Positions 3,091 to 18,731 of a stretch of DNA of 64,000 bases are shown one piece after another (within the stretch, counting starts at the first letter, position 1; every line of letters starts with the position of its first letter). A model generated the notes under the pieces. The model was given only the letters and a program-made list of their open reading frames with translations, made no database searches and was not told the origin of the DNA. A program made the position numbers and the translations under genes. The stretch is from Escherichia phage nepoznato. Where the stretch lies: the sequence record NC_052658.1. One strand, 5' to 3'.

Positions 3091-4032
3091 TGTAGAAGTT
3101 TCTTGTCATACTATGCAACAGAGCAAGGAGAAAAATATGATGGACGATTCAACCTTGGAGTAGTTTCTATCAACTTGCCTCTGATTGCTGCGGAAGCGAG
3201 AAGTAAAGGAGAATCTTTCACCGATCTTCTTAATAAACATATGGAGATAGCCTACGATGCTCACATGCTACGTGTAAACCGTATCAGACATACCAAAGCA
3301 TCTGAAAACCCTATTCTTTTCATGGAAGGGGCTTTAGCGCGTTTAAATGCCAATGATGAAATTGGTGTTTTGTTTGAAGGTGGTTATGCTTCTATTAGTA
3401 TTGGTTATGTAGGTCTTGCCGAAGCTTTGGAAATCCTTTATCCAGAAGAAAAAGATAAAAAGGAACTTGGTAAAAACATTCTGCAACATATGAAAGATGT
3501 GTGTGCTGTGTTTAAAGAGCGATCTAAGCTGGCATTTAGTCTCTATGGAACTCCAGCAGAATCTTTGTGCTATAAGTTTGCAACAGCTTTAAATGAAAAA
3601 TACCCAGGTTTGGTAGAAAGAGACTATCTTACTAACTCTTTTCATCAACCTGTATGGTTGGTAACAAATCCTTTTGAAAAATGGGATTATGAAGCAGGTT
3701 TTGCACAGATTAGTAATGGTGGTAACATAAGTTATGTCGAAACACCAAACTTAAAGAATAACTTAGAAGCTTTGGAGACTTTAGTAGACTACGCTTATGA
3801 ACATATTCACTATTTTGGTATTAATCAGCCCGTGGATCAATGCTTTAAGTGTGGTTTTCATGGAGAATTTAAGGCAACGGCTAAAGGGTTTGAGTGTCCT
3901 GATTGTGGCAACCATGAAGAAGAAACTATTTCTGTAGTTAGACGTGTATCAGGGTATCTTTCTGCTCCTAATTCACGGCCTTATAACAAAGGTAAAATGC
4001 AGGAAGTTTTGCAAAGGGAGAAACATCTTTGA
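3091..4032 (+). CDS. nrdD: NrdD, exon 2 (glycyl-radical C-terminal part)
   Basis: CRSFL...GRFNLGVVSINLP, C-terminal zinc ribbon CFKCGFHGEF...CPDCGN and glycyl-radical motif RRVSGYL. The open frame begins at 3061 (GTG) but homology begins at 3091. Confidence 0.8.
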   Translation, partial: CRSFLSYYATEQGEKYDGRFNLGVVSINLPLIAAEARSKGESFTDLLNKHMEIAYDAHMLRVNRIRHTKASENPILFMEGALARLNANDEIGVLFEGGYASISIGYVGLAEALEILYPEEKDKKELGKNILQHMKDVCAVFKERSKLAFSLYGTPAESLCYKFATALNEKYPGLVERDYLTNSFHQPVWLVTNPFEKWDYEAGFAQISNGGNISYVETPNLKNNLEALETLVDYAYEHIHYFGINQPVDQCFKCGFHGEFKATAKGFECPDCGNHEEETISVVRRVSGYLSAPNSRPYNKGKMQEVLQREKHL

Positions 4033-4719: not shown

Positions 4720-5325
4720 ATGCAACATAGTGTAGTAGTCAACATGCCGAATAGTGGGGATAAATCTTTTGGTGTCCCTGCTAAAAAAGTGTGGAAAGCC
4801 CATTTTCATCTTACTTTATCTAACGTTAGTTCTGAAGAGTTGATGAAAGCAGCTAAGATTATTGGTGCCAAATGCACAACAATTGATTTACATCGGGATA
4901 CAAAGTCTCAACGTGATCGTATGTTAACAAAGTATCAAAGCGATCTCGACACTACTTTAATGTTGCAGTGTGTAGAAAAACTTGAGAATGCAGGTTTCAA
5001 TGTTGTTCGTTACAAACTGGAACGAATGTTTAAACATGTTGCCTGTGTTCTTTTCATGGATCTAAGTAAAGAAAATTATGGAGAAGTTCACATTAAGACT
5101 TCAGCAAGTGATCCCGAAGTAGAAACAAACTTCTTCCGTATTTCTTCTAATGCTGAAGAAATTGATTACCGATTTTATAATGCTCGCTTATATTCCGCAG
5201 AAGATAAGTTGCGTTTCAATGAAGCGTATGATATGCTCTTGAACAGTGGGATACAGATAAAAGGCTACCACATAGAACAAGTGGTAGTGGACAGTAATCT
5301 TAACTTAGACGCATGGTGGGCTTAA
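4720..5325 (+). CDS. Hypothetical protein; weak 2H-phosphoesterase-like HxTx motif
   Basis: GAGGAG SD; one HLTL (H-x-T-x) motif near residue 30; a second canonical motif is not clear (VHIKTS). Confidence 0.45.
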   Translation: MQHSVVVNMPNSGDKSFGVPAKKVWKAHFHLTLSNVSSEELMKAAKIIGAKCTTIDLHRDTKSQRDRMLTKYQSDLDTTLMLQCVEKLENAGFNVVRYKLERMFKHVACVLFMDLSKENYGEVHIKTSASDPEVETNFFRISSNAEEIDYRFYNARLYSAEDKLRFNEAYDMLLNSGIQIKGYHIEQVVVDSNLNLDAWWA

Positions 5326-5326
5326 T

Positions 5327-5983
5327 ATGACTATTAAACATATCTCTTTTGATGTATGGAACACACTGATCACAGCAAACTCCAATTACGCAGACATGCG
5401 AGCCTGGACTATCGCAAAATATGGAGATATTACGGAAGTGGAAGCAAGAGCAGCTTATAAGAAGATCAAAAAGGAACTGGATAATGCAGCACTTCAAGGC
5501 AAAGCCGAGTGTGCAGCATACGCCTGGGAAAGACTTGGTTCTGAACTTGGGATAACACCTTGGAAGTCTGCAAAGCTTCGTTTCGAGTGTGAACAGTGGT
5601 TCCTTAAGTTTCCACCACACGTAGCCGTGGATCTGCCGATGTACTTGCTGTATCTTTCGGGACGTTATGATTTGAGTATTAAGAGCAATACCAACTTTAT
5701 ATCAGGGGATATCCTGCGTCGTGCTTGTAAGTTTGATAGTTGGAATTGTTTTGAGTTCACCCATTTCTCGGATGAAGCTTTACTTTGTAAACCAGATCCG
5801 CGATTCTTTGCTCGCACGCTCACATATTCTCCGATCCCTCTGTTAGGGCACGAAGTATTGCACGTAGGCGATAGTGAAGAATATGATGGAAAATGTGTTG
5901 ACTTAGGATTTAACTTCTGTCATATTAAGAACCCTAACGACTTACTAGAGAAACTTAAAAGAGGAGAAATTGTAAATGCGTAA
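5327..5983 (+). CDS. HAD-superfamily hydrolase-like protein
   Basis: N-terminal ISFDVWNTLI (haloacid-dehalogenase-type DxYGT-like motif I variant) and C-terminal HVGDSEEYDG (motif IV-like). Confidence 0.5.
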   Translation: MTIKHISFDVWNTLITANSNYADMRAWTIAKYGDITEVEARAAYKKIKKELDNAALQGKAECAAYAWERLGSELGITPWKSAKLRFECEQWFLKFPPHVAVDLPMYLLYLSGRYDLSIKSNTNFISGDILRRACKFDSWNCFEFTHFSDEALLCKPDPRFFARTLTYSPIPLLGHEVLHVGDSEEYDGKCVDLGFNFCHIKNPNDLLEKLKRGEIVNA

Positions 5984-6803
5984 TCAAACTCAAATTTTTG
6001 CAAATAAATTTGATGACCTGGAAACTGCTACTTTTGATATCCAAGATTATTCAAAATTGAAATTTGGTAGTAACCAAGCCGCGCGTCGTATGGGTAAAGA
6101 ATTGGCACTTCAGTTTTTTGCTCAAGTGGCAATGAAACATATTGGGGAACAATTTGTTATCATTCCTTCTCCTTACAACCATGTGCATAATGCTGCAACA
6201 ATGATGACAGATCATTTTATTAATTACTTTAACATGTTGCAATCACAATATAATCAAGGTCGTTCAGCAGAACTGGACATTATTCATCGTAAAGTTAGCT
6301 ATATCAACGATTATGGTTTCTTGGATAAAGCTAGTCGTAAGAAACTTATTGATGGGGATACATTCTACTGCAACAAAGAATTCTGGGGTGATAAGAAGCT
6401 TGTATTCATTGATGATGTAAATATCACTGGAACGCATGAAGACAAACTGATTGAGATTCTTGATGAAAATCAAGTTAAAAATGATGTTTACTTCCTGTAT
6501 TTTGCAAAATATGAAGGTAATCAAGCAGATACCGAAGCTAAACTGAATTTTAACTACATTAATACACCAGAAGCGTTTGTTAAAATGATTAATGAAGAAC
6601 GTGATGCACAGTGTCTTGTTCGTCCTATTAAATATCTTATGGGCCAAAATCATGAAGACTTCAAAATCATTCTTAGCCAATTGCCACACTACTATGTAGA
6701 GCAACTTTTCTTCGGCTGTTTAGCTGAAGGCTACAATCGAATTGCAAAGTATACTGAAAACTTTGAATTCTTGGATCGTTACACAAAACAACACATTCTG
6801 TAA
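5976..6803 (+). CDS. Phosphoribosyltransferase (PRTase)-like protein
   Basis: KKLVFIDDVNITGT resembles the type I PRTase PRPP-binding loop; GAGGAG SD; start overlaps the end of the HAD-like gene. Confidence 0.5.
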   Translation: MRNQTQIFANKFDDLETATFDIQDYSKLKFGSNQAARRMGKELALQFFAQVAMKHIGEQFVIIPSPYNHVHNAATMMTDHFINYFNMLQSQYNQGRSAELDIIHRKVSYINDYGFLDKASRKKLIDGDTFYCNKEFWGDKKLVFIDDVNITGTHEDKLIEILDENQVKNDVYFLYFAKYEGNQADTEAKLNFNYINTPEAFVKMINEERDAQCLVRPIKYLMGQNHEDFKIILSQLPHYYVEQLFFGCLAEGYNRIAKYTENFEFLDRYTKQHIL

Positions 6804-6817
6804 TAAGGAGCTAAAAA

Positions 6818-7291
6818 ATGCTTAAAATGAAAACAGGTAATCTTATTGATGCCGCTAAAGCAGGTGAAGTAACTGTTATTGCTCATTGTTGCAATTGTAT
6901 GTGTAATATGGGGGCAGGAATTGCTCCGCAAATTAAACGAGCATTCCCTTATGCATATGCGGCGGATTTAGACACAATGGCTGGTGATCAGAGTAAGTTA
7001 GGTTCTTTTAGTTTAGGGGTGCCAGACGAACAATCAGACCCTTTGGTATATAATCTATACGGGCAATACCGTTACGGATATAATGCTAAAGGTCGTCAGT
7101 TGGACTATGATGCCCTATACGATGCACTAATAGCTATGGCTAATGATTTGCTTCTCCGTGACCAAAAATGTAAGATCGGTTTACCTATGATTGGAGCGGG
7201 ACATGCCGGAGGTAATTGGGCTATCATCCAAGTGATGATTGAAGAAACTTTAGTAAAAACAGGTCACGATGTGACTATTTATAAACTTTAA
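6818..7291 (+). CDS. Macro-domain (ADP-ribose-binding/processing) protein, divergent
   Basis: VTVIAHCCNCMCNMGAGIAPQI aligns with the macro VxNAAN..LxGGGGVDGAI region; LPMIGAGHAGGNWAII aligns with the second macro motif; 157 aa. Confidence 0.55.
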   Translation: MLKMKTGNLIDAAKAGEVTVIAHCCNCMCNMGAGIAPQIKRAFPYAYAADLDTMAGDQSKLGSFSLGVPDEQSDPLVYNLYGQYRYGYNAKGRQLDYDALYDALIAMANDLLLRDQKCKIGLPMIGAGHAGGNWAIIQVMIEETLVKTGHDVTIYKL

Positions 7292-7303
7292 GAGGAGATT
7301 AGT

Positions 7304-7525
7304 ATGGGTGTTTTTGCAGGTATTGTTGCAGTGGTAAGCTTTTTTGTTATTGCTTTTATGCTTAGTTTGATTCCAGCTTGGTTACTGTTGCTGGCTTACA
7401 ACTATGTTGCTGAAGTTATGGGTCATGCAGATATCACTGTCCCAGTAACCTTCTGGACCGTGGTTTGTGTTTCGTTTATTCTGGCTGTATTACGAGGAAT
7501 CTTTTCCTCTCATTCAACAAAATAA
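7304..7525 (+). CDS. Small membrane protein (two predicted TM helices)
   Basis: AGAGGAG SD; hydrophobic segments FAGIVAVVSFFVIAFMLSLIPAWLLLLAY and TVVCVSFILAVL. Confidence 0.5.
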   Translation: MGVFAGIVAVVSFFVIAFMLSLIPAWLLLLAYNYVAEVMGHADITVPVTFWTVVCVSFILAVLRGIFSSHSTK

Positions 7526-7528
7526 GTG

Positions 7529-7557
7529 TTGACATAGTTCTTAAAAAGAGTAAGATA
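7529..7557 (+). promoter_or_regulatory. Sigma70-like promoter upstream of terC
   Basis: TTGACA at 7529-7534, 16-17 nt spacer, TAAGAT -10-like hexamer; followed by a leader hairpin GCGGGGA/TCCCCGC (7569-7587) before the SD. Confidence 0.45.
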
Positions 7558-7604
7558 TATCACATGAAGCGGGGAATAGTTCCCCGCAAAGAGAGGAGAA
7601 AAGA

Positions 7605-8579
7605 ATGCAACTCGGTTTCCCAATTATTGATGTAGTTGTTTTAGTTGGTATTTTGGCATTGTCTATTGGTATCGATTTCTTTGGTCATAAAGAGAATAAA
7701 GAAATTGGAATTAAATCTGCTTTGCTTTGGTCTATTTTTTGGATTGCTTTAGCTTTAGGATATTACGCATTCATTTGGGTAGAACATGGTAAAGAGTTTG
7801 CCGCGCTTTTCCTAAGTGGCTATGTGTTGGAAAAGAGTCTTTCTGTAGATAACCTGATGGTGTTCATGGCAATTTTTGCAAGCTTTGGAATTAAGAGCAC
7901 ACATCTCCAACATAAGATTTTACTTTGGGGGATTGCAGGAGCCATTGTCTTCCGAGGTATTTTTGTTGCAGCAGGCACCGCTTTGTTTAACCTTCATTGG
8001 TCGGTACAAGTGTTGTTCGGTTTGATTGTAGCTTGGTCTGCCGTAGCTATCATCAAAGGTGGTGACGAAGAAGAGGATATTGATTACTCTAAGCATTGGG
8101 CTGTTCGTTTAGTAGGTAAAGTTCTGCCTGTGCACAATGCACTGGATGGTGAAAAGTTCATTACCATTAAGAATGGTATTAAATATGCAACTCCTGCTCT
8201 TCTTTGTGTGTTTGTTATTGAGCTTACAGATATTGTCTTCTCTTTTGATTCAGTTCCGGCTGTGATCGGTGTGACACAAGAACCTCTGCTGGTTTATTCT
8301 GCAATGCTGATGGCTGTTCTTGGTTTACGTGCGCTTTTCTTTGTGTTAAGTGTAGCTGTGAAATATCTGGTTCACTTAGAGAAAGCTGTTGCTGTGGTTC
8401 TGGTGTTTGTTGGTGTTAAACTTATGTATCACCCGTTCGGTGAAACACTTCATGCCAAGTGGTCATTCCTCCCGCATGATATTTCCCCTAACGTAAGTCT
8501 GATGATTGTTCTAGGCACATTAGCTCTTGGTGTTATTGCAAGCTTTATCTTCCCTGAAAAAGAAGAAGCTGCTGTTTAA
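7605..8579 (+). CDS. terC: TerC-family integral membrane protein
   Basis: Multi-pass membrane protein with the TerC signature EKSLSVDNLMVF and a second SFDSVPAV segment; 324 aa. Confidence 0.8.
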   Translation: MQLGFPIIDVVVLVGILALSIGIDFFGHKENKEIGIKSALLWSIFWIALALGYYAFIWVEHGKEFAALFLSGYVLEKSLSVDNLMVFMAIFASFGIKSTHLQHKILLWGIAGAIVFRGIFVAAGTALFNLHWSVQVLFGLIVAWSAVAIIKGGDEEEDIDYSKHWAVRLVGKVLPVHNALDGEKFITIKNGIKYATPALLCVFVIELTDIVFSFDSVPAVIGVTQEPLLVYSAMLMAVLGLRALFFVLSVAVKYLVHLEKAVAVVLVFVGVKLMYHPFGETLHAKWSFLPHDISPNVSLMIVLGTLALGVIASFIFPEKEEAAV

Positions 8580-8585
8580 TAGATG

Positions 8586-8610
8586 AGCCTCCTTCGGGAG
8601 GCTATTTTAT
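8586..8610 (+). terminator. Rho-independent terminator after terC
   Basis: Hairpin AGCCTCC-TTCG-GGAGGCT followed by ATTTTAT. Confidence 0.65.
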
Positions 8611-8621
8611 AGGAGAGACTT

Positions 8622-8972
8622 ATGAATAATTTTGATGAAATTCAAGAACTTGTTTGGGATTTATCTGGTGATGTGGATTACATTTCAGATTATCTTTCAA
8701 AAGTTTACCCTGGGGTAAGCGTTATGATTGTGACCAAAGATCCGATTAATTTGCCTCCTAATGTGGTAGCTTGTTGTGGAAGTGGTTCAGGAGAAGTAGA
8801 GCCTGTATCTCGTTGGGAATTAACTAAAGCTGTTTCAAAACGAAACGGTGAAGTTTTGAATATTGATATTGAACAAATATGGACTTCTCCAGCAGCCAAA
8901 TGGAATGATCCGAATGGTTGGGATTTGTTCTTCTGGGATAATGAAACTGATGATGAGGTATTTTTAAAATGA
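8622..8972 (+). CDS. Hypothetical protein
   Basis: ATG with SD; 116 aa; no motif. Confidence 0.45.
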   Translation: MNNFDEIQELVWDLSGDVDYISDYLSKVYPGVSVMIVTKDPINLPPNVVACCGSGSGEVEPVSRWELTKAVSKRNGEVLNIDIEQIWTSPAAKWNDPNGWDLFFWDNETDDEVFLK

Positions 8973-9214
8973 AATACTTGTTGGTTGTGTTTGAAAATAT
9001 CTGTTTTGCAATAGGGTTGTTTGTTGTAATTTTTGTATTGACAAGCGTAATCAACGGCAGTAAAGTGAGTTTATACCGAGATGGAGAGCAAATTTATTGC
9101 TTCTCTGGAGATTTCAAACACAGATGTATTAATAGTCAAAATGAGGAAAGCAAATATGAAAAAACTAGCCCTGATTTTAATTGGTTGTATCTTTTTAACA
9201 GCTTGCGAGGATGA
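8969..9214 (+). CDS. Hypothetical small membrane protein (uncertain; overlaps the lipoprotein start)
   Basis: N-terminal hydrophobic segment LLVVFENICFAIGLFVVIFVLTSV; overlaps the next gene. Confidence 0.3.
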   Translation: MKYLLVVFENICFAIGLFVVIFVLTSVINGSKVSLYRDGEQIYCFSGDFKHRCINSQNEESKYEKTSPDFNWLYLFNSLRG

Positions 9215-9593
9215 AACAAATCCTGCACAATACCAACAACCTCCTCAACAATACGCCCAACAAGGATCTGATGGAGATACAACTATTATCAACAATGGTG
9301 GCGGTTCTAGTAGTAGCGGTGTTGGTGAGTTTGCTACAGGTATGTTGTTAGGGCATATGATGAGCGGTGGTAGTAATCGTAGTGGCGGGGATTATAACGA
9401 TAACAGAACAATTATTAATAAACATTATAACACACCTAAACCGAAGACTAATTTTTATGGTAAGCCTAAACAAGAGACAAAAACTTATGAAAAGCCGAGA
9501 CAAACTTTTAAAACAAATAGTAGCTATACAACTCGTAAATCTTACAATAGCCCTTTAAGTAAAAAGAGTTCATCTCGTAGCAAGCGACGTTAA
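9156..9593 (+). CDS. Lipoprotein (signal peptide plus lipobox), Q/G/S-rich with a lysine-rich C-terminus
   Basis: MKKLALILIGCIFLTAC lipobox; GAGGA SD at 9143-9147; alternative ATG at 9141; low-complexity mature region. Confidence 0.55.
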   Translation: MKKLALILIGCIFLTACEDETNPAQYQQPPQQYAQQGSDGDTTIINNGGGSSSSGVGEFATGMLLGHMMSGGSNRSGGDYNDNRTIINKHYNTPKPKTNFYGKPKQETKTYEKPRQTFKTNSSYTTRKSYNSPLSKKSSSRSKRR

Positions 9594-9608
9594 TAAGGAG
9601 AAAAAACA

Positions 9609-10052
9609 ATGACAATTTCTATCCGTACTTCCATTACAGGTGTTAAAAGTTTGCCTAATGCTTTGCAAATTACACGCGCTTTGAGGGATACGTTCTCCGC
9701 TGTGGATGAGCATAAGATGCTTGATAATCTCTCAAATTGGCCTTATTTTCATTATTTTAAAAATGAAGACGACGAGTTTATAGATGCTGTTTCTTATGGT
9801 TATGATTTCGGTAAGGAGGTTTCTCCTGAAGAATTTGTAGCTATGGTGTTCCCAAACGGTTTGCCTACTCGCAGTAAACGTAAAAAAGGACCAAAAAACA
9901 AGAAACGTGCTACTAACAAAGCTACCATTTTCTTTACTGATGGCACACAATATACGATTAAAGATTTTGAAGAGGTATCTTATACAGCAGGTGGGAATCT
10001 TTCTTTCTACACCATCAAAAAAACAAAACCCTACGTTCAGCCATGTTTCTAA
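9609..10052 (+). CDS. Hypothetical protein
   Basis: ATG with GGAG SD; 147 aa; basic patch KRKKGPKNKKR. Confidence 0.45.
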   Translation: MTISIRTSITGVKSLPNALQITRALRDTFSAVDEHKMLDNLSNWPYFHYFKNEDDEFIDAVSYGYDFGKEVSPEEFVAMVFPNGLPTRSKRKKGPKNKKRATNKATIFFTDGTQYTIKDFEEVSYTAGGNLSFYTIKKTKPYVQPCF

Positions 10053-10206
10053 CATGATTGAAATGTTAGTAGAAGATATTGAAAGCGTGGCTGTGTTAGG
10101 TATGCATAAAAGCTTTTTAATTACAAATATTTCAGATTTCAGTGCACGTTTATCTGGCCCTGATTTTGAAGCCACGACCACGCATTTCACTTTTAAGGTG
10201 TAAGTT

Positions 10207-10797
10207 ATGCATACCGAGAGAGACTTGCAACTCTTGTGGTGGGAAGTGATGCAGGAAATAAAAGAAGATTTTCCTGTTTACTACAACATGTTACGTGAAG
10301 CAGGATATAAAGCTTGCGTTAGAAACAAAGTGAATAACTCTTTTGGTTGGTGCAATTACCGAGATAAGATTGTTGTTGTAAATTGGCACTTGCATAAGAA
10401 CTCCACAAGAGATATGATCGTGGATACAATGAAGCACGAAATTGCTCACGCTATTGATGGTTGTATGGGTAAGTTTAGTAGGCATGGTGCTCATTGGCAA
10501 AAACTGGCAGCAGAATTAGGGGCTAATCCTAAAGCCACTTCCAAAGAGCCGTTGAACCACGAATATAAATATGTTCTTGTTCTGGTAGATAGGTTTGCGA
10601 CAAGATGTGTTAGAGGTTATAATCGTAAACCTAATCGCATGTACCCAGGTAAGCAACCTAACATGTGGTTGAAATCAGATAAAGAAGGAACTGAAGGAAA
10701 ATTATGGTTGTATAAATGGGATGATTGGGTTAAAGTAGCTAAAGAGTACGGTGTTTCACCATATATAAGAGATGCAGAAGAGGAGAATGAAGAATGA
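10207..10797 (+). CDS. SprT-like zinc metalloprotease domain protein
   Basis: HEIAHAID (HExxH) in a SprT-like context, followed by ...HGAHW. Confidence 0.5.
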   Translation: MHTERDLQLLWWEVMQEIKEDFPVYYNMLREAGYKACVRNKVNNSFGWCNYRDKIVVVNWHLHKNSTRDMIVDTMKHEIAHAIDGCMGKFSRHGAHWQKLAAELGANPKATSKEPLNHEYKYVLVLVDRFATRCVRGYNRKPNRMYPGKQPNMWLKSDKEGTEGKLWLYKWDDWVKVAKEYGVSPYIRDAEEENEE

Positions 10798-11906
10798 CAA
10801 GTCCATTTTTAAAAGCAGCTACTGGTGGTCAGAAGAAGTCTGAAATGAGTGTATTCGCTGCAACAACAGATGCAAGTAAATCTGTATTCGCTCCAAGTGT
10901 GTTAGATGCCAGTCCTGTTTATGCACCAGCAGCACCGCAAGAAGTTCCAGTTTTGCCTGCTATGACCCGACAAGAGATCGAAGAGATTGGGGCAGAGGCA
11001 GGAACAACCTTGCGTTCCTTGAATGCCGAGGTATTAAAACATCAACGTAGTAATCAAGGCGATCAGATGAGTGAACGACTCACAGCTTTGATTAAACAGG
11101 CAAAACAACTTGATCCAAATTCTATTAAACAAAGCAAGGGTATTACTAAACTCATTAAAAAAGTTATGGGTATGAAAGAAGACCTGTTCGGGGAGTTTGA
11201 TAATGTTAATAACCGTATTGAAGAGTTGGTAAAGAACCTTCAAATGGATATTCGCAAAGAAGAAGATTCCTTGGTATATCTTGAAAAGCTACATCAAGCT
11301 ATTGGACAATATGCTGCAAGTTTGAACCGAGATATGCAGCTTCTAACAGCAACCTATGAAAAAGAAGAACAAGCTTTGGCTGCTCTTCCAGAAGATGCAG
11401 TAGAACAGCGACAAGTGATCCGAGATACTTTGGATCTTCTGGAGATTCGTATTGCAGATTTAAAAGCATTGCGCCTACTGTGTGTCCAAATGGGACCGCG
11501 TGTACAAGGTATGCAAAAAGTTTCTGCAAGCTTAATGCGATCTGCGCGTAACATAGTAAATAATGTTATTCCTGCTTACTCTGCTAACTTCTCAATGTAT
11601 ATCGAGAGTTTACGTCAAATGAAAGCAGCAGAGACGCAGAATAACGTTCTTGATGAATTTAACCTGGCAATTAAACTGGGTAGCGATCTTGCCACACAGA
11701 ATCAGATCGAAGCAGCAGCACTGGCTAACCGTCAAGTGTTGGATATTGAAACTCTGCGTCACGATCAGGAAAACTTGGTTAAGATGTTGGAAGAAACTAA
11801 CCGCATCAATACGGAAGCCCGTGCTGCTCGTGTTGATTATATTAATGAAGTTCAATCTCTGGAAGACGGGATGGTAGCTGCTGTGAAACGAGGGCTTGGT
11901 AAATGA
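10794..11906 (+). CDS. Coiled-coil protein, tentatively TelA-like (toxic anion resistance family)
   Basis: 370 aa, largely helical/coiled-coil; size and context (terC/terD neighbourhood) fit TelA; no diagnostic motif verified. Confidence 0.3.
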   Translation: MTSPFLKAATGGQKKSEMSVFAATTDASKSVFAPSVLDASPVYAPAAPQEVPVLPAMTRQEIEEIGAEAGTTLRSLNAEVLKHQRSNQGDQMSERLTALIKQAKQLDPNSIKQSKGITKLIKKVMGMKEDLFGEFDNVNNRIEELVKNLQMDIRKEEDSLVYLEKLHQAIGQYAASLNRDMQLLTATYEKEEQALAALPEDAVEQRQVIRDTLDLLEIRIADLKALRLLCVQMGPRVQGMQKVSASLMRSARNIVNNVIPAYSANFSMYIESLRQMKAAETQNNVLDEFNLAIKLGSDLATQNQIEAAALANRQVLDIETLRHDQENLVKMLEETNRINTEARAARVDYINEVQSLEDGMVAAVKRGLGK

Positions 11907-12100
11907 GAATCCGTATCTATATAATTGATGAAGACATTGGTGTCCGTTATGATGACGAAAAACGATTCGCACCGATGGGAGGCATATATCCCCCAAGTGT
12001 TCTAGCAGTTTGTCGTGATTGTTATATTTATGAAGGTTGTCGTAACTTCCGTAAATTCCAACTACTTGCAGATATTGACTTCAACGAGGAGGAGGAGTAA
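11903..12100 (+). CDS. Hypothetical small protein
   Basis: Start overlaps the upstream stop (translational coupling); 65 aa; acidic C-terminus. Confidence 0.4.
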   Translation: MRIRIYIIDEDIGVRYDDEKRFAPMGGIYPPSVLAVCRDCYIYEGCRNFRKFQLLADIDFNEEEE

Positions 12101-12271
12101 TGAAAATATTACGAGTGAATATTGAAACTGCTTGGTGTGGATGCAATGAGGTTGTGGATATCGAAATTGAAGATGATATGTCTCAAGAGGATATAGAAGA
12201 TCTTGCACACGAAACCTTTCAGGACTATTGTAATTACGGGTTTCATATTTTAGAGGAGGAAGAAGATGTTT
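12100..12271 (+). CDS. Hypothetical small acidic protein (57 aa, below the ORF-track cutoff)
   Basis: ATG at 12100 preceded by GGAGGAG; translation MKILRVNIETAWCGCNEVVDIEIEDD...; stop at 12269-12271. Confidence 0.4.
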
Positions 12272-12469
12272 AACTACGATAACGATCCTAATATTATCCA
12301 GTTAACCCGACAAGAACTGATCACAATCATTGAAGATGCTTTTATTGATGGTTGGAATACACAAGATAATGATTGGGGTGGACCCGAAGCTTTTCTGGAA
12401 CATCATAAAACGTATGGAGACTTTTGTGAAACCACTGTAGCTCTTGATAATCTGAAGGAGGGTTTGTAA
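12266..12469 (+). CDS. Hypothetical small protein
   Basis: GAGGAGGAAG SD; 67 aa. Confidence 0.4.
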   Translation: MFNYDNDPNIIQLTRQELITIIEDAFIDGWNTQDNDWGGPEAFLEHHKTYGDFCETTVALDNLKEGL

Positions 12470-13029
12470 TGGGTTGTTTTAGTTTTTTGTGTAAGGAATC
12501 TGGAAAAGCTGCCCTTTCTACTTCTTTCGACGGATCACCTTGTTATCTCTTTCTTTTGAAGGACGGTGTTGTTATTGAAGAGATGTATGGCAACTATGAT
12601 AGTTATGGTTGTGTTTTCTCTGGAAAGGAGGATGAAAATGGCGTTCGTGAACGGTTCGAATGGGCTATGGATTGGGGTAAGGTTTGTGATTTAATGCATT
12701 CCTCAAATCCAAGGGACGGTATTGCTATGGTGCTGGAAGAGTACTTTACAGGTGAAATCCCTACAGAACAATCTGACGGAGATCCTAATCAAGGTTGGGG
12801 TGATGGTGAAGAAGATCCAGATTGTTTTTTCAGCACAGAAAAGAATAAGTTTAAACGTGTTGACAACCCTTATCACAAAGTGCATAATACTCTCATTGAA
12901 ACAGAAGATGACAAGATGGAAATTGAAGAAGATCCTCTTGTAACACTTCCTATAAGTGAGTTACAAAAGATCACTAAGGAAGCTTACGATTTGGGCTTCA
13001 AAATTGGTAGAGGAGGTATGCGTGTTTAG
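12469..13029 (+). CDS. Hypothetical acidic protein
   Basis: Start overlaps the upstream stop; 186 aa; very acidic C-terminal half. Confidence 0.45.
   Translation: MGCFSFLCKESGKAALSTSFDGSPCYLFLLKDGVVIEEMYGNYDSYGCVFSGKEDENGVRERFEWAMDWGKVCDLMHSSNPRDGIAMVLEEYFTGEIPTEQSDGDPNQGWGDGEEDPDCFFSTEKNKFKRVDNPYHKVHNTLIETEDDKMEIEEDPLVTLPISELQKITKEAYDLGFKIGRGGMRV
12860..12888 (+). promoter_or_regulatory. Sigma70-like promoter (inside the 12469 gene) ahead of the first Ter cassette
   Basis: TTGACA (12860-12865), 17 nt spacer, CATAAT (12883-12888). Confidence 0.45.
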
Positions 13030-13300
13030 ATTCAATATTCAAGAAGAAAAGTGTCAGGATTTACCTATTGCTTTCGAAGATCTTGGCATAGGGGCCACAT
13101 TCATGTATTATGATGCCTATGAAGACGCAGGGTTGGATACATACCGTAACTTGGTGTTCATTAAAAATTCCACAAACAGTGCGATCTGTATTAATGGATC
13201 ACTAGCACAACGAGGCTATACTCATTGCATCCCGCCAGATACAAATATGGTGGAAGTAGATTTAGAAGTTACCAACATTACACTTAAGAAGGAGAAATAA
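13022..13300 (+). CDS. Small protein, paralog A of a duplicated pair (cassette 1)
   Basis: GTG start with AGGAGG at 13011-13016; about 35-40% identical by eye to the 14322 protein (shared FxIxxxK, DLxxGxTFxY, GLD, VxLxVTxITLK). Confidence 0.5.
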   Translation: MFRFNIQEEKCQDLPIAFEDLGIGATFMYYDAYEDAGLDTYRNLVFIKNSTNSAICINGSLAQRGYTHCIPPDTNMVEVDLEVTNITLKKEK

Positions 13301-13301
13301 T

Positions 13302-14096
13302 ATGTCCGAGAAAATCAGCCTGAAAAAACGTCAAGAAAACCTTGCTTTCTCTCTGAAAAAGAATAAGAACCTGAATGAAGGTAAGATTGTTCTTCGTGTA
13401 GCATGTGCTCTAGATATTTCTGGTAGTATGCATGGTCTATATTCTAGTGGGGTAGTGAGTGATTTTGTAGGTAAACTGCTTCCTTTTGGTATGCTGTTCG
13501 ACGATAATCAACAAATTGATATGTGGGCCTTCAATACGAGTTCCCAAGAGCTTACTCCAGCAACAGCAGATGTTTACGATGACTATGTTGGTAAATGTAT
13601 GCGTAATGTTCGTATCGGAGGTGGAACAAATTACGCCCCTGTAATGGCGGATATCTACGATGAGTATTTTGGCACTGTTACTAAATATATTACCACTAAA
13701 CAAGTGGTACAAGAGGAGGCTCCAAAGAAAGGCTTCTTTAATCGTCTGCTTGGTAAAACTGAAACAGTGTCTGTAGAGCGTGAAAAAGTTGTAGCTGTAT
13801 CTGAACCAGGTGCTGACGTTACCCCTGGTGTTGTATTCTTCCAGACGGATGGTGAGAATGGTGATCCTAGTGCTGTTCGTCGTCTTATCGAAGAGAATAA
13901 GAATAAACCTATTTATTGGTTCATGGTTGGCGTTGGTAATGAGAAGTTCGGCTTCCTGAAAGAACTGGCAAATGCTTATGATAATGTTGGTTTTATTGGC
14001 ATTAAAGATTTAGACTTGACAGATTCAGAGCTTTATGACAAACTCTTATCTGAAGAGTTCGGAGAGTGGGTTGTTAAAGTAGGTGCTAAAAAATGA
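13302..14096 (+). CDS. vWA-domain protein with a TerD-type N-terminal ISLKK peptide (TerF/TerY-like)
   Basis: N-terminus MSEKISLKK...FSLKK, then vWA MIDAS motif LRVACALDISGSM (DxSxS). Confidence 0.55.
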   Translation: MSEKISLKKRQENLAFSLKKNKNLNEGKIVLRVACALDISGSMHGLYSSGVVSDFVGKLLPFGMLFDDNQQIDMWAFNTSSQELTPATADVYDDYVGKCMRNVRIGGGTNYAPVMADIYDEYFGTVTKYITTKQVVQEEAPKKGFFNRLLGKTETVSVEREKVVAVSEPGADVTPGVVFFQTDGENGDPSAVRRLIEENKNKPIYWFMVGVGNEKFGFLKELANAYDNVGFIGIKDLDLTDSELYDKLLSEEFGEWVVKVGAKK

Positions 14097-14341
14097 TCGA
14101 CGAGCTTGCCTCTCAAGTCATAGAAAATTATTGGCGCGAGAGAGAAGCTTTCATTATGCGCAGTCTCAAAGAGTATTTCATTGGGACTGTGCGAATGGAA
14201 GATATTGTAAGTAGAGTAGAGATTCATGTATGGCCCGATTATGAAGAATGGGTTGACAAAGAAAATGAAAATGCTATAATTCTTCGTATATACAAACCGG
14301 AGATAACATTAGGAGGAAGAAGTGTTAAACTTCGAAATTGA
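14093..14341 (+). CDS. Hypothetical small protein
   Basis: Start overlaps the upstream stop; 82 aa; contains the next cassette's promoter. Confidence 0.35.
   Translation: MIDELASQVIENYWREREAFIMRSLKEYFIGTVRMEDIVSRVEIHVWPDYEEWVDKENENAIILRIYKPEITLGGRSVKLRN
14253..14280 (+). promoter_or_regulatory. Near-consensus sigma70 promoter ahead of the second Ter cassette
   Basis: TTGACA (14253-14258), 16 nt spacer, TATAAT (14275-14280). Confidence 0.55.
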
Positions 14342-14591
14342 TGAGCAAAAAGTAAATAAACGATGCCTTACCATTAAAGATTTGGATGTAGGAGATACTT
14401 TCGTCTATGAAAATGCATTTGACGAAAATGGTTTAGACCTTAGTGAAATCATTGTTTATTTAAAAGTAGATGATGGGGAAAATGATTGTTCTGCTGTAGA
14501 ACTAAACCATCATGCACAATTAGTATCAATCCAAAACACATCTAAGCTTTTGGAAGTAGAATTGACTGTAACTGGTATTACACTTAAATAA
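14322..14591 (+). CDS. Small protein, paralog B of the duplicated pair (cassette 2)
   Basis: GTG start with AGGAGG at 14311-14316; paralogous to the 13022 protein. Confidence 0.5.
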   Translation: MLNFEIDEQKVNKRCLTIKDLDVGDTFVYENAFDENGLDLSEIIVYLKVDDGENDCSAVELNHHAQLVSIQNTSKLLEVELTVTGITLK

Positions 14592-14606
14592 TAGAGGAGA
14601 CAAAAG

Positions 14607-15209
14607 ATGACTGATAAAATTTCCCTGAAAAAAGGCTCTAGCGAAAAAATTTCCCTGAAGAAAGTTGCTCCGGCTCTGAAAGAACTGCGCCTGGAATTCT
14701 CTTGGAAATCTGATTCTAAACTGGATCTGGATGTAAGTGCACTGGTTTGTCGTCACAATGCCGCTGGCAATCCTGAAATGCTGTCTGCACGTCACCTGGT
14801 TTGCTATGCTAACAAGTTTGATCCTGAACGTTCTACCTTCGCTGGTGACGATGTTCGTGATGGAACTGGCAGCATGGAGCAGATTGATATTACTCTGGCT
14901 AAAATCTCTCCTGATGCACAAGAGATTGCCTTTGTTCTGACCATTGATGATGATACAGGTCTGAAACGTTTTGGTCATGCTTCTGAAGGTATGCTTAAAA
15001 TCTTTGACTCCGAGCGCAATGTGGAAATTCTGGATTTTGACTTCCTGGCTCCTGAAGTAGCTGGCAACACAATCTGCCACGTGGCTTCCTTGGTTCGTGA
15101 AGATGGGGAATGGAAGCTGAAAGCATATGGTGTAGGTAAAGCTGGTCTGGATATTTGTGATGTGGTCATGGCCTTCGGTGGTAAAAAAGAATGGTATGAA
15201 TGTCCATAA
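14607..15209 (+). CDS. terD: TerD-domain protein
   Basis: N-terminal double repeat KISLKKG...KISLKK, then TerD-family motifs DLDVSAL, GDDVRDGTGS, EWKLKAYGVGKAG; codon usage strongly biased to CTG/CGT/GGT. Confidence 0.8.
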   Translation: MTDKISLKKGSSEKISLKKVAPALKELRLEFSWKSDSKLDLDVSALVCRHNAAGNPEMLSARHLVCYANKFDPERSTFAGDDVRDGTGSMEQIDITLAKISPDAQEIAFVLTIDDDTGLKRFGHASEGMLKIFDSERNVEILDFDFLAPEVAGNTICHVASLVREDGEWKLKAYGVGKAGLDICDVVMAFGGKKEWYECP

Positions 15210-15308: not shown

Positions 15309-15830
15309 TTGCTGATAAAAAACTTTGTAACAGTTGCGTTACTATCCTTAACTGCTTTTACATTTACACCTGTTGTGGCGAAAGCCGAAGCTGCAAACGT
15401 AAAAACCGCTAAAGTAGTTCACAAATGTACAAAGCAATATAATGATAAAATTCTATTAGCTTGTGCAATTTACGCAGAAGGTCGCGGTCTGGGTAAAAAA
15501 GGAATGAATGCCGTTGGGAATGTGGTAATCAACAGAAGAAATGATACCTACTTCCCTAACACAGTCAGAGGAGTCTTGTTCCAGAAAGGACAATTCTCAT
15601 ATGCGAAAACTTTTAACGTAACAGAGAAAGATAAGTGGCAGGAAGCAAAAGCAATAGCGGAGCGTTTACTTTATCTAGAGAAACATTTTCCTGAATTGCG
15701 GTCTGTTTTAGATGTTACTAAAGGTGCTCTATACTTCAAGAAACGGAATATAAAGACACACTGGGAACGTGATATGCGTCTTGTTTATCGAGATAAAGTG
15801 CATGGTTTCTATCTACCAAAGGGGAGTTAA
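15309..15830 (+). CDS. Secreted cell-wall hydrolase, SleB-like
   Basis: Signal-peptide-like N-terminus (LLSLTAFTFTPVVAKA), then CAIYAEGRG...GMNAVGNVVINRR...TVRGVLFQKGQFSY typical of SleB/Hydrolase_2; TTG start. Confidence 0.6.
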   Translation: MLIKNFVTVALLSLTAFTFTPVVAKAEAANVKTAKVVHKCTKQYNDKILLACAIYAEGRGLGKKGMNAVGNVVINRRNDTYFPNTVRGVLFQKGQFSYAKTFNVTEKDKWQEAKAIAERLLYLEKHFPELRSVLDVTKGALYFKKRNIKTHWERDMRLVYRDKVHGFYLPKGS

Positions 15831-16531: not shown

Positions 16532-17095
16532 ATGATTTATTATATTACTCCCTATCTGACAGGAAATATCGGCAAGGCTATCAATGAAGCCATTGCCGTT
16601 CTTCCAGATGATAGTTGGGTGTGTTTAAGAGATACCGATACAATGTTCCTCCTACCTGATCAACCATCTATGCTTGAAGAGCTTGTTATGTCAAACCCGC
16701 CTTTTGATGTAATAGGTGCAACTTGTAACAGGTTAGGCAGTGGTTATCAACTTTTCTCTAACCAAATTAACGATGATCCAGATATTCTAAACCATATAGA
16801 ATATGCTAAGATTGCAAGAGAATATCATAAAGTGAGTGTTGAAGAAGTTCCTTTCGGAACACCTCTAGCAGGTTTCTTTTTGCTTTTTAGAAAATCCTTG
16901 TGGAATGAAATTCCTTTCGAAGAAAAATCTATCCAATTCGACTTAATTTTCTCTCGCACTTTACATGAAAAAGGAAAGAGGTTAGGATTGATGCGGGGAA
17001 TGTATCTATTTCACATTTACAGATTAGGTCAAACAAATCCTCAACGGTCTATACATCATTTATTACACTGTCACGATCACAGTAAAACTATTTAG
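16532..17095 (+). CDS. Putative glycosyltransferase (GT-A-like, tentative)
   Basis: GGAGGGGAG SD; Rossmann-like N-terminus and DTD motif; 187 aa. Confidence 0.3.
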   Translation: MIYYITPYLTGNIGKAINEAIAVLPDDSWVCLRDTDTMFLLPDQPSMLEELVMSNPPFDVIGATCNRLGSGYQLFSNQINDDPDILNHIEYAKIAREYHKVSVEEVPFGTPLAGFFLLFRKSLWNEIPFEEKSIQFDLIFSRTLHEKGKRLGLMRGMYLFHIYRLGQTNPQRSIHHLLHCHDHSKTI

Positions 17096-17103
17096 GAGAG
17101 AAA

Positions 17104-18724: not shown

Positions 18725-18731
18725 GTGAAGT

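Follow-up and report, generated by a model that had tools for sequence, protein, structure and literature searches.

A phage-borne Ter gene module with a linked HAD–PRTase_3 pair in the phAPEC8/phi92 subfamily

We analysed a 64,000-nucleotide stretch of Escherichia phage nepoznato (NC_052658.1; hereafter the window), in which six genes almost certainly form a true Ter system carried by the phage and fixed in Stephanstirmvirinae, the phAPEC8/phi92 subfamily: TerC, TelA, a TerF-type vWA protein, TerD and an adjacent HAD–PRTase_3 pair. Although it forms a real, coherent unit, the module was already known: genes in near-identical GenBank genomes carry Ter names, and Ter systems of phages, including PRTase and HAD enzymes, have been described (Iyer et al. 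2021, Viruses 13:63; PMC7824862). The phage belongs to Phapecoctavirus (phAPEC8-like); the window shares ~98% identity with dozens of GenBank phages, as does the Ter block with more than 50, whose genes are named TerC, tellurite resistance/TelA, TerD or stress protein, VWA, and phosphoribosyltransferase. The initial annotation had called this block unusual, a weighting not supported in view of these annotated relatives, the 147–223 phage records found per homologue, and the published account. The features of the region are:

4720–5325, + strand: X201, a 201-aa enzyme-like protein, first gene of a tightly packed four-gene run
5327–5983, + strand: HAD-fold hydrolase with atypical motif I (D9-V-W11-N-T), sub-threshold in Pfam and assigned by a homologue profile against PDB
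5976–6803, + strand: PRTase_3, a ComF-like phosphoribosyltransferase (Pfam PF15610, E = 2.3e-41)
6818–7291, + strand: protein with a macro domain of the SCO6735/DarG/TARG1-like group (Pfam Macro, E = 8e-5; 23 bits, cut-off 22)
7304–7525, + strand: small two-TM membrane protein directly 5' of TerC (two hydrophobic segments; phrog_16065; kept in phi92)
7529–7556, + strand: sigma-70-like promoter before TerC, TTGACA-16-TAAGAT (10/12)
7569–7587, + strand: 5'-leader hairpin before TerC (-18 kcal/mol, z -2.4)
7605–8579, + strand: TerC/Alx-family integral membrane protein with nine hydrophobic segments (Pfam TerC, E = 1.3e-40)
8586–8603, + strand: intrinsic terminator-like hairpin and T-run directly 3' of TerC (7-bp stem, 5 GC pairs)
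8622–10203, + strand: lineage-specific small genes between TerC and SprT/TelA (PHROGs without assigned function)
10207–10797, + strand: SprT-like Zn metalloprotease (Pfam SprT-like, E = 4.2e-9; HExxH motif as HEIAH)
10794–11906, + strand: TelA, coiled-coil protein of the toxic anion resistance family (Pfam TelA, E = 3.4e-33)
12469–13029, + strand: conserved 186-aa protein directly 5' of the small-gene/vWA pair (phrog_14928)
12860–12888, + strand: sigma-70-like promoter before the small gene and vWA, TTGACA-17-CATAAT (11/12)
13022–13300, + strand: small protein, phrog_11278 copy 1, directly 5' of vWA (GTG start after a GGAGG site)
13302–14096, + strand: vWA protein, TerF C-terminal type (Pfam vWA-TerF-like, E = 1.6e-37; intact MIDAS DISGS)
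14253–14280, + strand: perfect sigma-70 consensus promoter before the small gene and TerD, TTGACA-16-TATAAT with upstream TG
14322–14591, + strand: small protein, phrog_11278 copy 2, directly 5' of TerD
14607–15209, + strand: TerD-domain protein (Pfam TerD, E = 3.2e-28)

The TerC, TelA, vWA, TerD and PRTase genes lie where they had been placed, and profile searches match TerC, TelA, TerF-type vWA, TerD and PRTase_3 at Pfam scores that clear the curated cut-offs by a wide margin. TerC scores 320 bits against the NCBIfam TerC/Alx profile TIGR03718 (cut-off 246) and has both acidic repeat motifs, EKSLSVDN and ELTDIVFSFDSV; its gene shows DNA similarity to no E. coli genome and was thus not captured recently from the host. 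TerD aligns over its full length to the solved Klebsiella TerD (2KXT, E = 1.5e-15), with an intact DLDVSA motif and a partly degenerate second Ca-binding motif (GDGDDE to GTGSME). No solved homologue of TelA was found. The peptide SEKISLKK is common to TerD and vWA here, confirming the TerD-type N-terminus attributed to the vWA protein, and the two families share a similar N-terminal peptide in every phage lineage examined. Homologues were found in 223 phage records for TelA, 218 for vWA-TerF, 173 for TerC, 155 for PRTase_3 and 147 for TerD, the last being 100% identical in many Phapecoctavirus isolates.

Smaller genes are interspersed among these. The lineage-specific interval holds a 116-aa ORF, a one-TM protein (8969–9214), a predicted lipoprotein (9156–9593, lipobox signal MKKLALILIGCIFLTAC), and an ORF (9609–10203) that is frameshifted relative to its relatives by an extra A in an A-run. 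The stop of the SprT-like gene overlaps the TelA start; tblastn detected no match to this gene at the phi92 and KP13-16 loci. Both it and the macro domain had been overlooked in the initial annotation. The 186-aa protein has no Pfam match and is 76% identical and syntenic in phi92. The two phrog_11278 copies are 31% identical (E = 3e-14); the family is confined to Stephanstirmvirinae-like contigs, with one copy in phi92. The promoter candidate before copy 2 and TerD is the sole 12/12 site in the 64-kb window, and that before copy 1 and vWA is one of only eight sites scoring at least 11/12, while the total of promoter-like matches across the region (41, versus 34.5 in shuffles) is not above shuffles. 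In phage ASO2A, too, the TerC promoter, leader hairpin and terminator-like hairpin were marked by the genome's authors.

The upstream boundary and the enzyme pair need some correction. Of the range 4720–15209 originally taken as the Ter module, the six genes stand, and the first ORF (4720–5325), which has neither a Ter-related nor any other Pfam match, is probably outside the Ter set. Both members of the PRTase/HAD pair are present in the reverse of the order listed: HAD comes first, overlapping the PRTase gene by 8 nt, and lies directly 5' of PRTase_3 at every locus examined. Alone, the HAD ORF is sub-threshold against Pfam Hydrolase (E = 4e-4, 21 bits versus a threshold of 26) and only partially matches REG-2-like and YjjG-like NCBIfam models. 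A profile of seven phage homologues supports the fold, matching 2OM6 over its full length (E = 1.4e-18) and HDHD3 (E = 3.5e-10). Residues D9, W11, N12, T13, S120, N121, K155, G181, D182 and D187 are invariant among the phage homologues. Because motif I is invariantly D-x-W-N-T, the protein lacks the usual phosphatase acid (the Asp+2 general acid), and its predicted chemistry is therefore uncertain; a nucleoside-like product made by a plain PRTase-then-phosphatase route is not established. PRTase_3 has the PRPP loop VFIDDVNITGT, in which D146, D147, T151 and G152 are invariant in 16 homologues. Only two PRTase_3 loci occur in 100,044 representative bacterial and archaeal genomes, one being this phage within a MAG.

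The six genes stay together across Stephanstirmvirinae even where their order has changed: phi92 has all six in the order seen here, and in Klebsiella phage KP13-16 their order differs. The Ter proteins are among the best conserved of the region (identity to phi92: TerD 81%, TelA 79%, TerC 72%). Brevundimonas and Caulobacter jumbo phages have the six as well. TelA lies beside vWA in Brevundimonas phages, and in one of these, Papperlapapp, TelA-vWA-TerC-TerD are four consecutive genes; phiPsa374 has TelA-x-vWA plus TerD. Among 11 divergent IMG/VR loci found via PRTase_3, six have Ter genes within 10 kb of it, in varied orders, such as TelA-HAD-PRT3-vWA (L023) and TerC-vWA-TerD-TerD-TelA-HAD-PRT3 (L025); in metagenomic contig L004 the pair likewise sits among Ter genes. 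In unrelated uncultivated phages HAD–PRTase_3 thus lies in or beside Ter clusters. The original reading of a Ter-type gene set, rather than scattered, unrelated core genes, is supported.

The explanation that we favour, tentatively, is a two-arm Ter system acting at the membrane. The membrane arm would comprise TerC (an Alx-type polytopic inner-membrane metal-transport protein), TelA, the MIDAS-containing TerF-type vWA protein and the Ca-binding-type TerD; the ever-adjacent HAD-fold hydrolase and ComF-like PRTase_3 would form a small-molecule arm. Host RNA polymerase would transcribe the Ter genes early from the sigma-70-type promoters, a timing suggested by the promoter-like matches only. TerC may anchor a metal-dependent complex of TelA, vWA and TerD beneath the membrane, with TerD and vWA perhaps docking via their common N-terminal peptide, and a ribosylated small molecule, the presumed product of HAD/PRTase_3, may feed the complex or regulate it. 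The complex would alter the infected cell's ionic state and envelope; up to programmed lysis, this could shut out superinfecting phages and make the cell tolerant of colicins and other damage to its membrane. We hold this functional part somewhat more loosely than the two-arm explanation as a whole. Superinfection exclusion is the role proposed for phage Ter systems, with xenobiotic resistance in pseudolysogeny as a possible extra benefit (Iyer et al. 2021, PMC7824862); our literature search for experiments on phage Ter modules found none. The earlier ideas of membrane or metal homeostasis, or of a Ter-linked metabolite, are reasonable. In favour are the family scores with intact metal-binding and catalytic motifs, synteny within the subfamily and independent recurrence elsewhere, the promoters before both small-gene pairs, TerC's own promoter and terminator, the small membrane and lipoprotein genes between TerC and TelA, and the exclusion role already proposed. 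Against it are HAD–PRTase_3 pairs that occur without Ter neighbours, TerC in phage genera outside the other tallies, a total of promoter-like matches no higher than in shuffles, the missing HAD general acid and the degenerate TerD motif.

Possible, though rather doubtful, is that two neighbouring functions are independent: HAD–PRTase_3 and the macro gene, possibly with ORF 4720–5325, would be a nucleotide/ADP-ribose metabolic or counter-defence unit beside NrdD/NrdG, and TerC/TelA/vWA/TerD a separate membrane module. The pair is indeed self-contained and mobile: on rhizobial plasmids and in five of the 11 divergent viral loci it has no nearby Ter gene, and in Brevundimonas phages 36 kb separate it from the Ter operon. 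A gene annotated as an NMN adenylyltransferase/NUDIX protein stands two genes downstream of it in Rhizobium phages, with no Ter gene found within ~9 kb, and the TelA, TerD and TerC tallies do not include Rhizobium among the genera that they name. The macro domain belongs with the DarG/TARG1/SCO6735 de-ADP-ribosylases (PADLOC DarG, 1.6e-10; NCBIfam DarG, 4.5e-9, far under the equivalog cut-off; PDB 5E3B, 1e-12; DarG macro 5M31, 9e-7; TARG1, 4e-6), phage macro proteins are counter-defence enzymes in another pathway, NARP1-AP (bioRxiv 10.64898/2026.01.28.702374), and ORF 4720–5325 matches antitoxin-labelled PADLOC models. However, no Adps/Namat genes lie near the macro gene here, both arms are found in all seven Brevundimonas records and the whole of Stephanstirmvirinae, and HAD–PRTase_3 is embedded in Ter clusters of varied order in unrelated lineages (L023, L025, L026, L018, L022, L004), for which chance is not an easy account because Ter genes occur in <0.5% of phage records. 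The macro gene is likewise kept after PRTase_3 in phi92 and lies close to Ter genes in phiPsa374 and L022; it may be either a peripheral module member or an independent counter-defence gene.

Metal supply or homeostasis is unlikely to be the main benefit in place of exclusion; in that reading, TerC/Alx would export or redistribute Mn2+ or other divalent cations to meet the needs of phage metalloenzymes or of the cytoplasm during infection, and TerD, vWA and TelA would serve as metal-sensing accessories. TerC falls clearly within the TerC/Alx metal-homeostasis subfamily and has its own transcription unit, TerD and vWA have metal-binding motifs, and the K. pneumoniae TerC is described as contributing to zinc resistance (PMC12054061). 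TerC homologues also occur in ~85–92 kb Aeromonas, Pectobacterium and Cronobacter phages, genera absent among those named in the TelA, vWA, TerD and PRTase_3 tallies. This leaves TelA and the linked PRTase/HAD arm unexplained, however, and comparison of the TerC leader with Rfam gave no Mn riboswitch or other metal-sensing leader.

Still less probable is lysis-timing control, in which a sub-membrane Ter complex would stabilise the inner membrane against premature holin/endolysin action or mediate lysis inhibition. An endolysin gene (15309–15830) does follow TerD here, lying one gene beyond TerD in phi92 and directly after TelA in KP13-16, and bacterial TerC raises tolerance to membrane-disrupting agents (PMC9933665), but this adjacency is limited to one subfamily, no lysin was noted beside Ter genes in the Brevundimonas, phiPsa374 or IMG/VR loci, and no holin/antiholin homology was found in the region. 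Very improbable is host-benefit cargo for tellurite or xenobiotic resistance, like the ter operons of plasmids and prophage-like islands: the family names, bacterial phenotypes and the pseudolysogeny proposal speak for it, but no integrase or repressor is among the annotated genes in the examined regions of related phages, and the genes show no similarity at the DNA level to ter or alx of E. coli.

In bacteria, ter loci confer colicin resistance, tolerance to envelope stress and inhibition of phages (Whelan 1995, as cited in PMC8115787; PMC9933665), in line with the explanation that we favour. Unlike bacterial ter resistance operons, which carry TerB and the TerZABE paralogues, the phage module lacks that set, a further point against the cargo reading. 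Relative to the Ter systems already described, what is new here is minor: the D-x-W-N-T motif of the HAD protein, the N-terminal peptide common to TerD and vWA, and the small paralogues ahead of vWA and TerD, each with a near-consensus sigma-70 promoter.

Over its full length, the 10.5-kb block matches about 60 GenBank Phapecoctavirus phages (phAPEC8, ESCO13, EF1-1, ZCKP1 and others) at 96-98% identity, and its more distant relatives are Justusliebigvirus (phi92) and Klebsiella phages, all of the subfamily Stephanstirmvirinae. The window itself is Phapecoctavirus; the phage's genome is of 150 kb, not jumbo size. The initial annotation had read 4720-15209 as a Ter module that would be unusual in a virulent phage. 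The observation is correct and the Ter reading right in kind; the unusualness was overstated, since the module is fixed and already annotated in a well-sampled subfamily and belongs to a published category. GenBank records of phAPEC8, phi92 and relatives carry the names TerC, tellurite resistance/TelA, stress protein/TerD, VWA and phosphoribosyltransferase. Genome papers on Phapecoctavirus mention 'tellurite resistance' in passing only, and our literature search turned up no experiments on a Ter module from any phage. With the genes annotated and the phage-borne Ter concept published, the finding adds little new. The increments, which are leads rather than discoveries, are the PRTase_3 flavour in the small-molecule arm, an atypical HAD motif, a shared N-terminal peptide, duplicated promoter/small-gene/Ter-gene units and a recurring macro-domain neighbour.

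Every gene from position 1 to about 30 kb is on the + strand, with NrdD and NrdG upstream of the block and an endolysin, four glycosyltransferases and a primase/helicase downstream.

Features of the block and of the glycosyltransferase run, in window coordinates
4720-5325, +: 201-aa ORF, enzyme-like, with invariant HxHxT and ExHxK strands
5327-5983, +: HAD-like protein
5976-6803, +: PRTase_3 (ComF-like), Pfam PF15610, E 2.3e-41
6818-7291, +: macro domain, 157 aa, Pfam score just over threshold
7304-7525, +: small membrane protein, two-TM
7605-8579, +: TerC, Pfam PF03741, E 1.3e-40
8969-9214, +: small membrane protein, one-TM
9156-9593, +: predicted lipoprotein, signal MKKLALILIGCIFLTAC, mature part Gly/Ser-rich and basic
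10207-10797, +: SprT-like metalloprotease, its stop overlapping the TelA start
10794-11906, +: TelA, Pfam PF05816, E 3.4e-33
13022-13300, +: first phrog_11278 copy, GTG start after GGAGG
13302-14096, +: vWA-TerF-like, Pfam PF10138, E 1.6e-37 (shared peptide encoded at 13302-13380)
14322-14591, +: second phrog_11278 copy, GTG start after GGAGG
14607-15209, +: TerD, Pfam PF02342, E 3.2e-28 (shared peptide encoded at 14607-14680)
16532-17095, +: glycosyltransferase, called from the annotation of related phages alone
17104-17787, +: weak TET-associated glycosyltransferase match only, E 1e-3
17777-18724, +: weak GT1/GT4 Pfam match
18732-19676, +: weak GT1/GT4 Pfam match

The four glycosyltransferase-like genes stand in a row (16532-19676, +) just 3' of the lysis gene. 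On the other side of the block, nrdD (anaerobic ribonucleotide reductase) spans 1448-4032 in two ORFs, 1448-2329 and 3061-4032 (+). The insertion between these ORFs holds an HNH/I-HmuI-like homing endonuclease ORF at 2429-2938 (+) and, at 2801-3040, a group I intron match that stays under the threshold (39 bits, E 2.5e-8); EF1-1 has an uninterrupted nrdD, and the phi92 annotation shows the gene as spliced. At 55820-56088 (-) there is a second group I intron, over the Rfam threshold (93 bits). It is abutted by an ORF at 56089-57405 (-) with five CapR-homology repeats and DUF723, which looks to be of homing-endonuclease type and is followed by a 646-aa ORF lacking a Pfam match. Several near-identical genomes have record names with an improbable host ('Campylobacter phage B15/A150/C3', 'Acinetobacter phage ABPW7', 'Pseudomonas phage PsgM04F'), probably through carry-over or mislabelling of E. 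coli-type phages.

Profile searches recovered all the genes that the initial annotation had named. TerC scores 320 bits against NCBIfam TIGR03718, the TerC/Alx metal-homeostasis subfamily (curated cut-off 246), and has both acidic motifs and nine hydrophobic segments. It has its own promoter-like site, a leader of about 45 nt with one hairpin, and a strong terminator, features that the authors of the related phage ASO2A also annotated. Rfam at gathering threshold over the whole window gave no yybP-ykoY Mn riboswitch or PRE in the TerC leader, and a Mn riboswitch ahead of TerC was therefore rejected. Recent capture of TerC from host alx/terC was likewise rejected, with 0 nucleotide matches in 5,426 E. 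coli genomes. The whole of TerD can be aligned with 2KXT, the solved TerD of Klebsiella (E 1.5e-15), and it retains the motif DLDVSA; its second Ca-binding motif is partly degenerate (GTGSME versus GDGDDE in Klebsiella TerD). The vWA protein has an intact MIDAS motif, DISGS. The TerD-type N-terminal peptide that had been noticed on the vWA protein is real: SEKISLKK occurs in both TerD and vWA. A similar peptide of about 20 residues, (L/I)(S/N)LxK...SLxK, is common to TerD and the vWA-TerF-like protein in every phage lineage examined (the window and loci L004, L008, L009, L011, L012 and L018-L026), including phi92, the Klebsiella phage KP13-16, Brevundimonas phages, phiPsa374 and several uncultivated phages, and may be a common docking tag.

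The PRTase_3 has the PRPP loop VFIDDVNITGT, with D146, D147, T151 and G152 invariant. Searched on its own, its partner, the HAD-like ORF, scores under the Pfam threshold; a profile built from seven phage HAD homologues has a full-length match to 2OM6, a solved HAD protein (E 1.4e-18), which makes the fold assignment safe, and also matches HDHD3 at 3.5e-10. Motif I is D-V-W-N-T (D-x-W-N-T), invariant in the seven homologues (the window, L002-L005, L008 and L009; 31-54% identity) and present also in 2OM6, which is solved but uncharacterised; motifs II-IV are present. Canonical HAD phosphatases have D-x-D-x-T/V as motif I, in which Asp+2 is the general acid/base; here Trp stands in place of Asp+2, so the protein lacks the general acid of HAD phosphatases. 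Judged by its motifs, it is a HAD-superfamily member whose phosphatase chemistry is only putative, and a scheme in which the PRTase makes a nucleotide that the HAD protein dephosphorylates should not be assumed.

This PRTase_3 clade is mainly phage-borne. A scan of bacteria and archaea at one genome per species (100,044 species) gave only 2 loci: the phage itself inside a MAG, and one Haliea MAG contig with four TerD genes. Plasmid matches were confined to rhizobial plasmids, bearing HAD-PRTase pairs without annotated Ter neighbours, and one Hymenobacter plasmid, with none on enterobacterial ter plasmids. Bacterial Ter loci with this PRTase_3 were rejected after these representative-genome and plasmid scans; given such scarce matches, the clade's tie to bacterial Ter loci consists of the Pfam family definition and the phage neighbourhoods.

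Those neighbourhoods recur. The order in phi92 is unchanged (HAD-PRT3-Macro-...-TerC-...-TelA-...-vWA-TerD), and KP13-16 has all six families inside 11.5 kb in altered order. In Brevundimonas jumbo phages, TelA-vWA-TerC-TerD make up an unbroken run of four genes and HAD-PRT3 is 36 kb off, and phiPsa374 has TelA-x-vWA and a TerD. An IMG/VR scan with the PRTase_3 alignment gave 16 loci, and HAD is immediately 5' of PRTase_3 in every one (16/16). Ter genes lie within 10 kb at 6 of the 11 divergent loci (37-50% identity), in varied arrangements: TelA-HAD-PRT3-vWA; TerC-vWA-TerD-TerD-TelA-HAD-PRT3; TerC-TerD-vWA-HAD-PRT3; and, at two loci, TelA-vWA...HAD-PRT3-TerD. One metagenomic contig (L004) packs TerC, TerD, vWA, HAD and PRT3 within 7.3 kb. 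Each of the TelA, vWA-TerF, TerC, PRTase_3 and TerD families occurs in 147-223 of 50,697 phage records, and because such rare families are found together repeatedly and in reshuffled order, the co-location is good evidence that their functions are linked. The linkage is not strict: the HAD-PRTase_3 pair stands alone on rhizobial plasmids and in some phages (the remaining 5 of the 11 divergent loci), and TerC homologues also occur in several other phage groups.

The nearest solved relatives of the macro-domain protein are SCO6735, the DarG macro domain and TARG1, which are de-ADP-ribosylases. A macro gene follows PRTase_3 in phi92 too, and macro genes lie close to Ter genes in phiPsa374 and one uncultivated phage, so that the recurrence covers at least three unrelated phage lineages, with a weakly supported fourth, ME3 (the Acinetobacter jumbo phage vB_AbaM_ME3), whose cluster is headed by a gene annotated as Appr-1-p processing. 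The recurring genes are at 6818-7291 (+) in the window, 3352-3885 in phiPsa374 (L012), 17139-17579 in an uncultivated phage (L022) and 16842-17468 in locus L035. Against the DarG equivalog (NCBIfam) the protein reaches 36 bits (cut-off 250), with only the macro domain covered; it has no C-terminal DarT-binding domain, and a DarT gene is absent nearby. By these comparisons its likeness to DarG, TARG1 and SCO6735 is at macro-domain level only. A macro domain of this type could equally belong to an anti-DarT counter-defence gene, and it is possible, if on balance doubtful, that the block consists of independent neighbouring units in which the HAD-PRT3 pair and the macro gene form a nucleotide or ADP-ribose counter-defence unit; the solitary HAD-PRTase_3 pairs are consistent with such independence, and the repeated co-location with Ter genes argues for a single system.

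The phage NAD+ reconstitution pathway NARP1-AP, which includes a Poa1p-like ADPR-1''-phosphate phosphatase (Osterman et al. 2026 preprint), offers a further comparison, in that the window too has a macro-domain gene adjoining a phosphoribosyl-type transferase gene. However, the NARP1-AP operon comprises Adps (Prs-like), the Adpp macro phosphatase and Namat (NAMPT-like), whereas the neighbours here are HAD, PRTase_3 and a small membrane protein, with no Prs or NAMPT domains in the ORFs from 16 to 21745 (Pfam); the NARP1-associated phosphatase is reported as Poa1p-like, whereas our macro protein groups with SCO6735/DarG/TARG1. With no Adps or Namat nearby and a different macro group, membership in NARP1-AP was rejected. 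In phiPsa374 (L012 1-3217), the TelA-vWA-TerD cluster, near the terminal repeat, is close to the macro gene and to genes annotated as nicotinamide phosphoribosyltransferase and ribose-phosphate pyrophosphokinase, which possibly serve NAD+ salvage or reconstitution.

Among the remaining genes of the block, the ORF at 4720-5325 gave nothing in Pfam or NCBIfam and a full-length match to two PADLOC models labelled AbiEi (E 5e-13); many of its charged residues are invariant. Uncharacterised proteins related to it in structure come from large phages, among them ME3 (ME3_124) and phages of Rheinheimera, Aeromonas and Sinorhizobium, and from giant viruses. It was rejected as a Ter component, being missing from phi92 and all distant Ter loci examined, with its ME3 homologue 80 kb away from the ME3 Ter cluster. 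The SprT-like gene has no match in the phi92 or KP13-16 loci. The two small membrane proteins interspersed with the Ter genes and the predicted lipoprotein are possible exclusion or envelope factors. A 198-aa gene is broken into ORFs 9609-10052 and 9907-10203 (+) by one additional A in the run near 10017-10023 (A7 here, A6 in EF1-1), which could be a sequencing error, a pseudogene or slippage.

The two phrog_11278 copies, 31% identical, sit directly upstream of vWA and of TerD, the products of which both begin with the KISLKK peptide, and ahead of each copy is a sigma-70 promoter of near-consensus or perfect sequence. The sole perfect TTGACA-N16-TATAAT in the 64-kb window lies at 14253-14280, and the site at 12860 belongs to a set of only eight that match at 11/12 positions or better (3.1 ± 1.8 in shuffles). 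The promoter, small gene and Ter gene look like a duplicated unit; phi92 has one phrog_11278 copy. These proteins were rejected as a general Ter partner, their homologues being confined to Stephanstirmvirinae-like contigs, and their structure prediction was unsuccessful (pLDDT 42).

From the observed family memberships, intact motifs, conservation, neighbourhood linkage, and promoter-like and terminator-like signals, we infer the following scheme. The genes would be expressed early from host-type promoters. TerC would provide a membrane anchor and metal-transport element, beneath which TelA, vWA (MIDAS) and TerD (Ca-type) would form a metal-dependent assembly, TerD and vWA docking possibly via the shared peptide. 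The HAD-PRTase_3 product would be a ribosylated small molecule that feeds or regulates this assembly, and the payoff would be that superinfecting phages are excluded and membrane damage is tolerated until lysis. Bacterial ter loci have been tied to resistance against colicins and inhibition of phages (Whelan 1995, cited through PMC8115787), and PMC9933665 connects them with tolerance of membrane-active agents, not with resistance to metals or ROS.

Metal homeostasis centred on TerC would agree with its Alx-type match, and would leave TelA and the linked HAD-PRTase_3 pair unexplained; we consider it unlikely. Control of lysis timing comes into question because the endolysin follows TerD or TelA in Stephanstirmvirinae; it seems very unlikely. 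Resistance cargo for the benefit of the host is hardly credible. Within the scheme of a Ter assembly beneath the membrane, a more specific proposal can be framed, and we regard it as quite unlikely to hold. The always-paired, largely phage-borne HAD (D-x-W-N-T)-PRTase_3 would make a dedicated ribosylated signal rather than a salvage product. TerD and the TerF-type vWA, docked via their common peptide on TerC/TelA, would read it and close the envelope to further infection, a second-messenger-controlled superinfection exclusion with the DarG/TARG1-like macro domain as off-switch or processing enzyme.

The physiological role of Ter proteins has been puzzling for decades. Many bacteria have them, and they have been connected with pathogen fitness, with resistance to phages and colicins, and with tolerance of envelope stress. 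The present phage group has a compact, conserved version, with one each of TerC, TerD, vWA, TelA and the HAD-PRTase pair; the group infects E. coli K-12, and laboratory phage collections already contain close relatives. It is therefore a convenient place to test the Ter role, the PRTase/HAD product and superinfection exclusion, and the module is of value as a tractable model of Ter function.

The Ter stress-response system was reportedly set out by Anantharaman, Iyer and Aravind in 2012, with terZABCDEF and the terXYW/biosynthetic operon of IncHI2 plasmids, E. coli O157 and Klebsiella. The B. subtilis yceCDEFGH operon is another bacterial ter locus. Such loci combine TerC, TerD, TerF-type vWA and TelA with a PRTase and a HAD protein predicted to make a nucleoside-like metabolite (PMC8115787), and the window shares all six families: TerD, a TerC-family protein, TelA and a TerF-type vWA, with linked PRTase and HAD. 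It has a single TerD, whereas bacterial loci have the TerZ/A/D/E/F paralogue set, and its vWA keeps just the N-terminal peptide of the TerD domain, whereas TerF is a full TerD-vWA fusion. TerB, ATP-grasp, PRTase_2, StiP/PELOTA and the TerY-kinase-phosphatase triad gave no Pfam match in the ORFs from 16 to 21745; TerB and the extended biosynthetic set are accessory Ter features, not universal ones. Like the E. coli Alx/TerC-family Mn exporters (TIGR03718), the window TerC matches over its full length above the curated cut-off with both acidic motifs; Alx has a yybP-ykoY (Mn/pH) riboswitch leader, whereas the window TerC has a short hairpin only and shares no nucleotide similarity with host alx.

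Iyer, Anantharaman, Krishnan, Burroughs and Aravind 2021 (Viruses 13:63; PMC7824862, section 3.4.10) list the Ter system components and describe phage-borne Ter, with ME3 as a 'relatively complete' example and 'abbreviated' TerD-TerC-TerF-TelA operons in Caulobacter jumbo phages. In their account, Ter might serve jumbo 'and certain other related smaller tailed phages' in countering superinfecting phages or in resisting xenobiotics. The window has what they take as phage-borne Ter, namely Ter components with a PRTase and a HAD protein in a tailed-phage genome, although its Ter genes, unlike their examples, are dispersed over 10 kb with lineage-specific small genes in between. We checked the ME3 cluster and found StiP/PELOTA_1, HAD, PRTase_2, TerD, a DUF475/TerC-family membrane protein and vWA-TerF, with no TelA detected by profile. 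Both are tailed phages with TerD, a TerC-family membrane protein, a vWA-TerF-like protein, a PRTase and a HAD protein. In ME3, PRTase_2 and StiP/PELOTA_1 flank HAD and the membrane protein is of the DUF475/TerC type, whereas the window has a single PRTase_3 with the D-x-W-N-T HAD, an Alx-type TerC and a clear TelA. The ME3 cluster is the same kind of system in another biosynthetic flavour.
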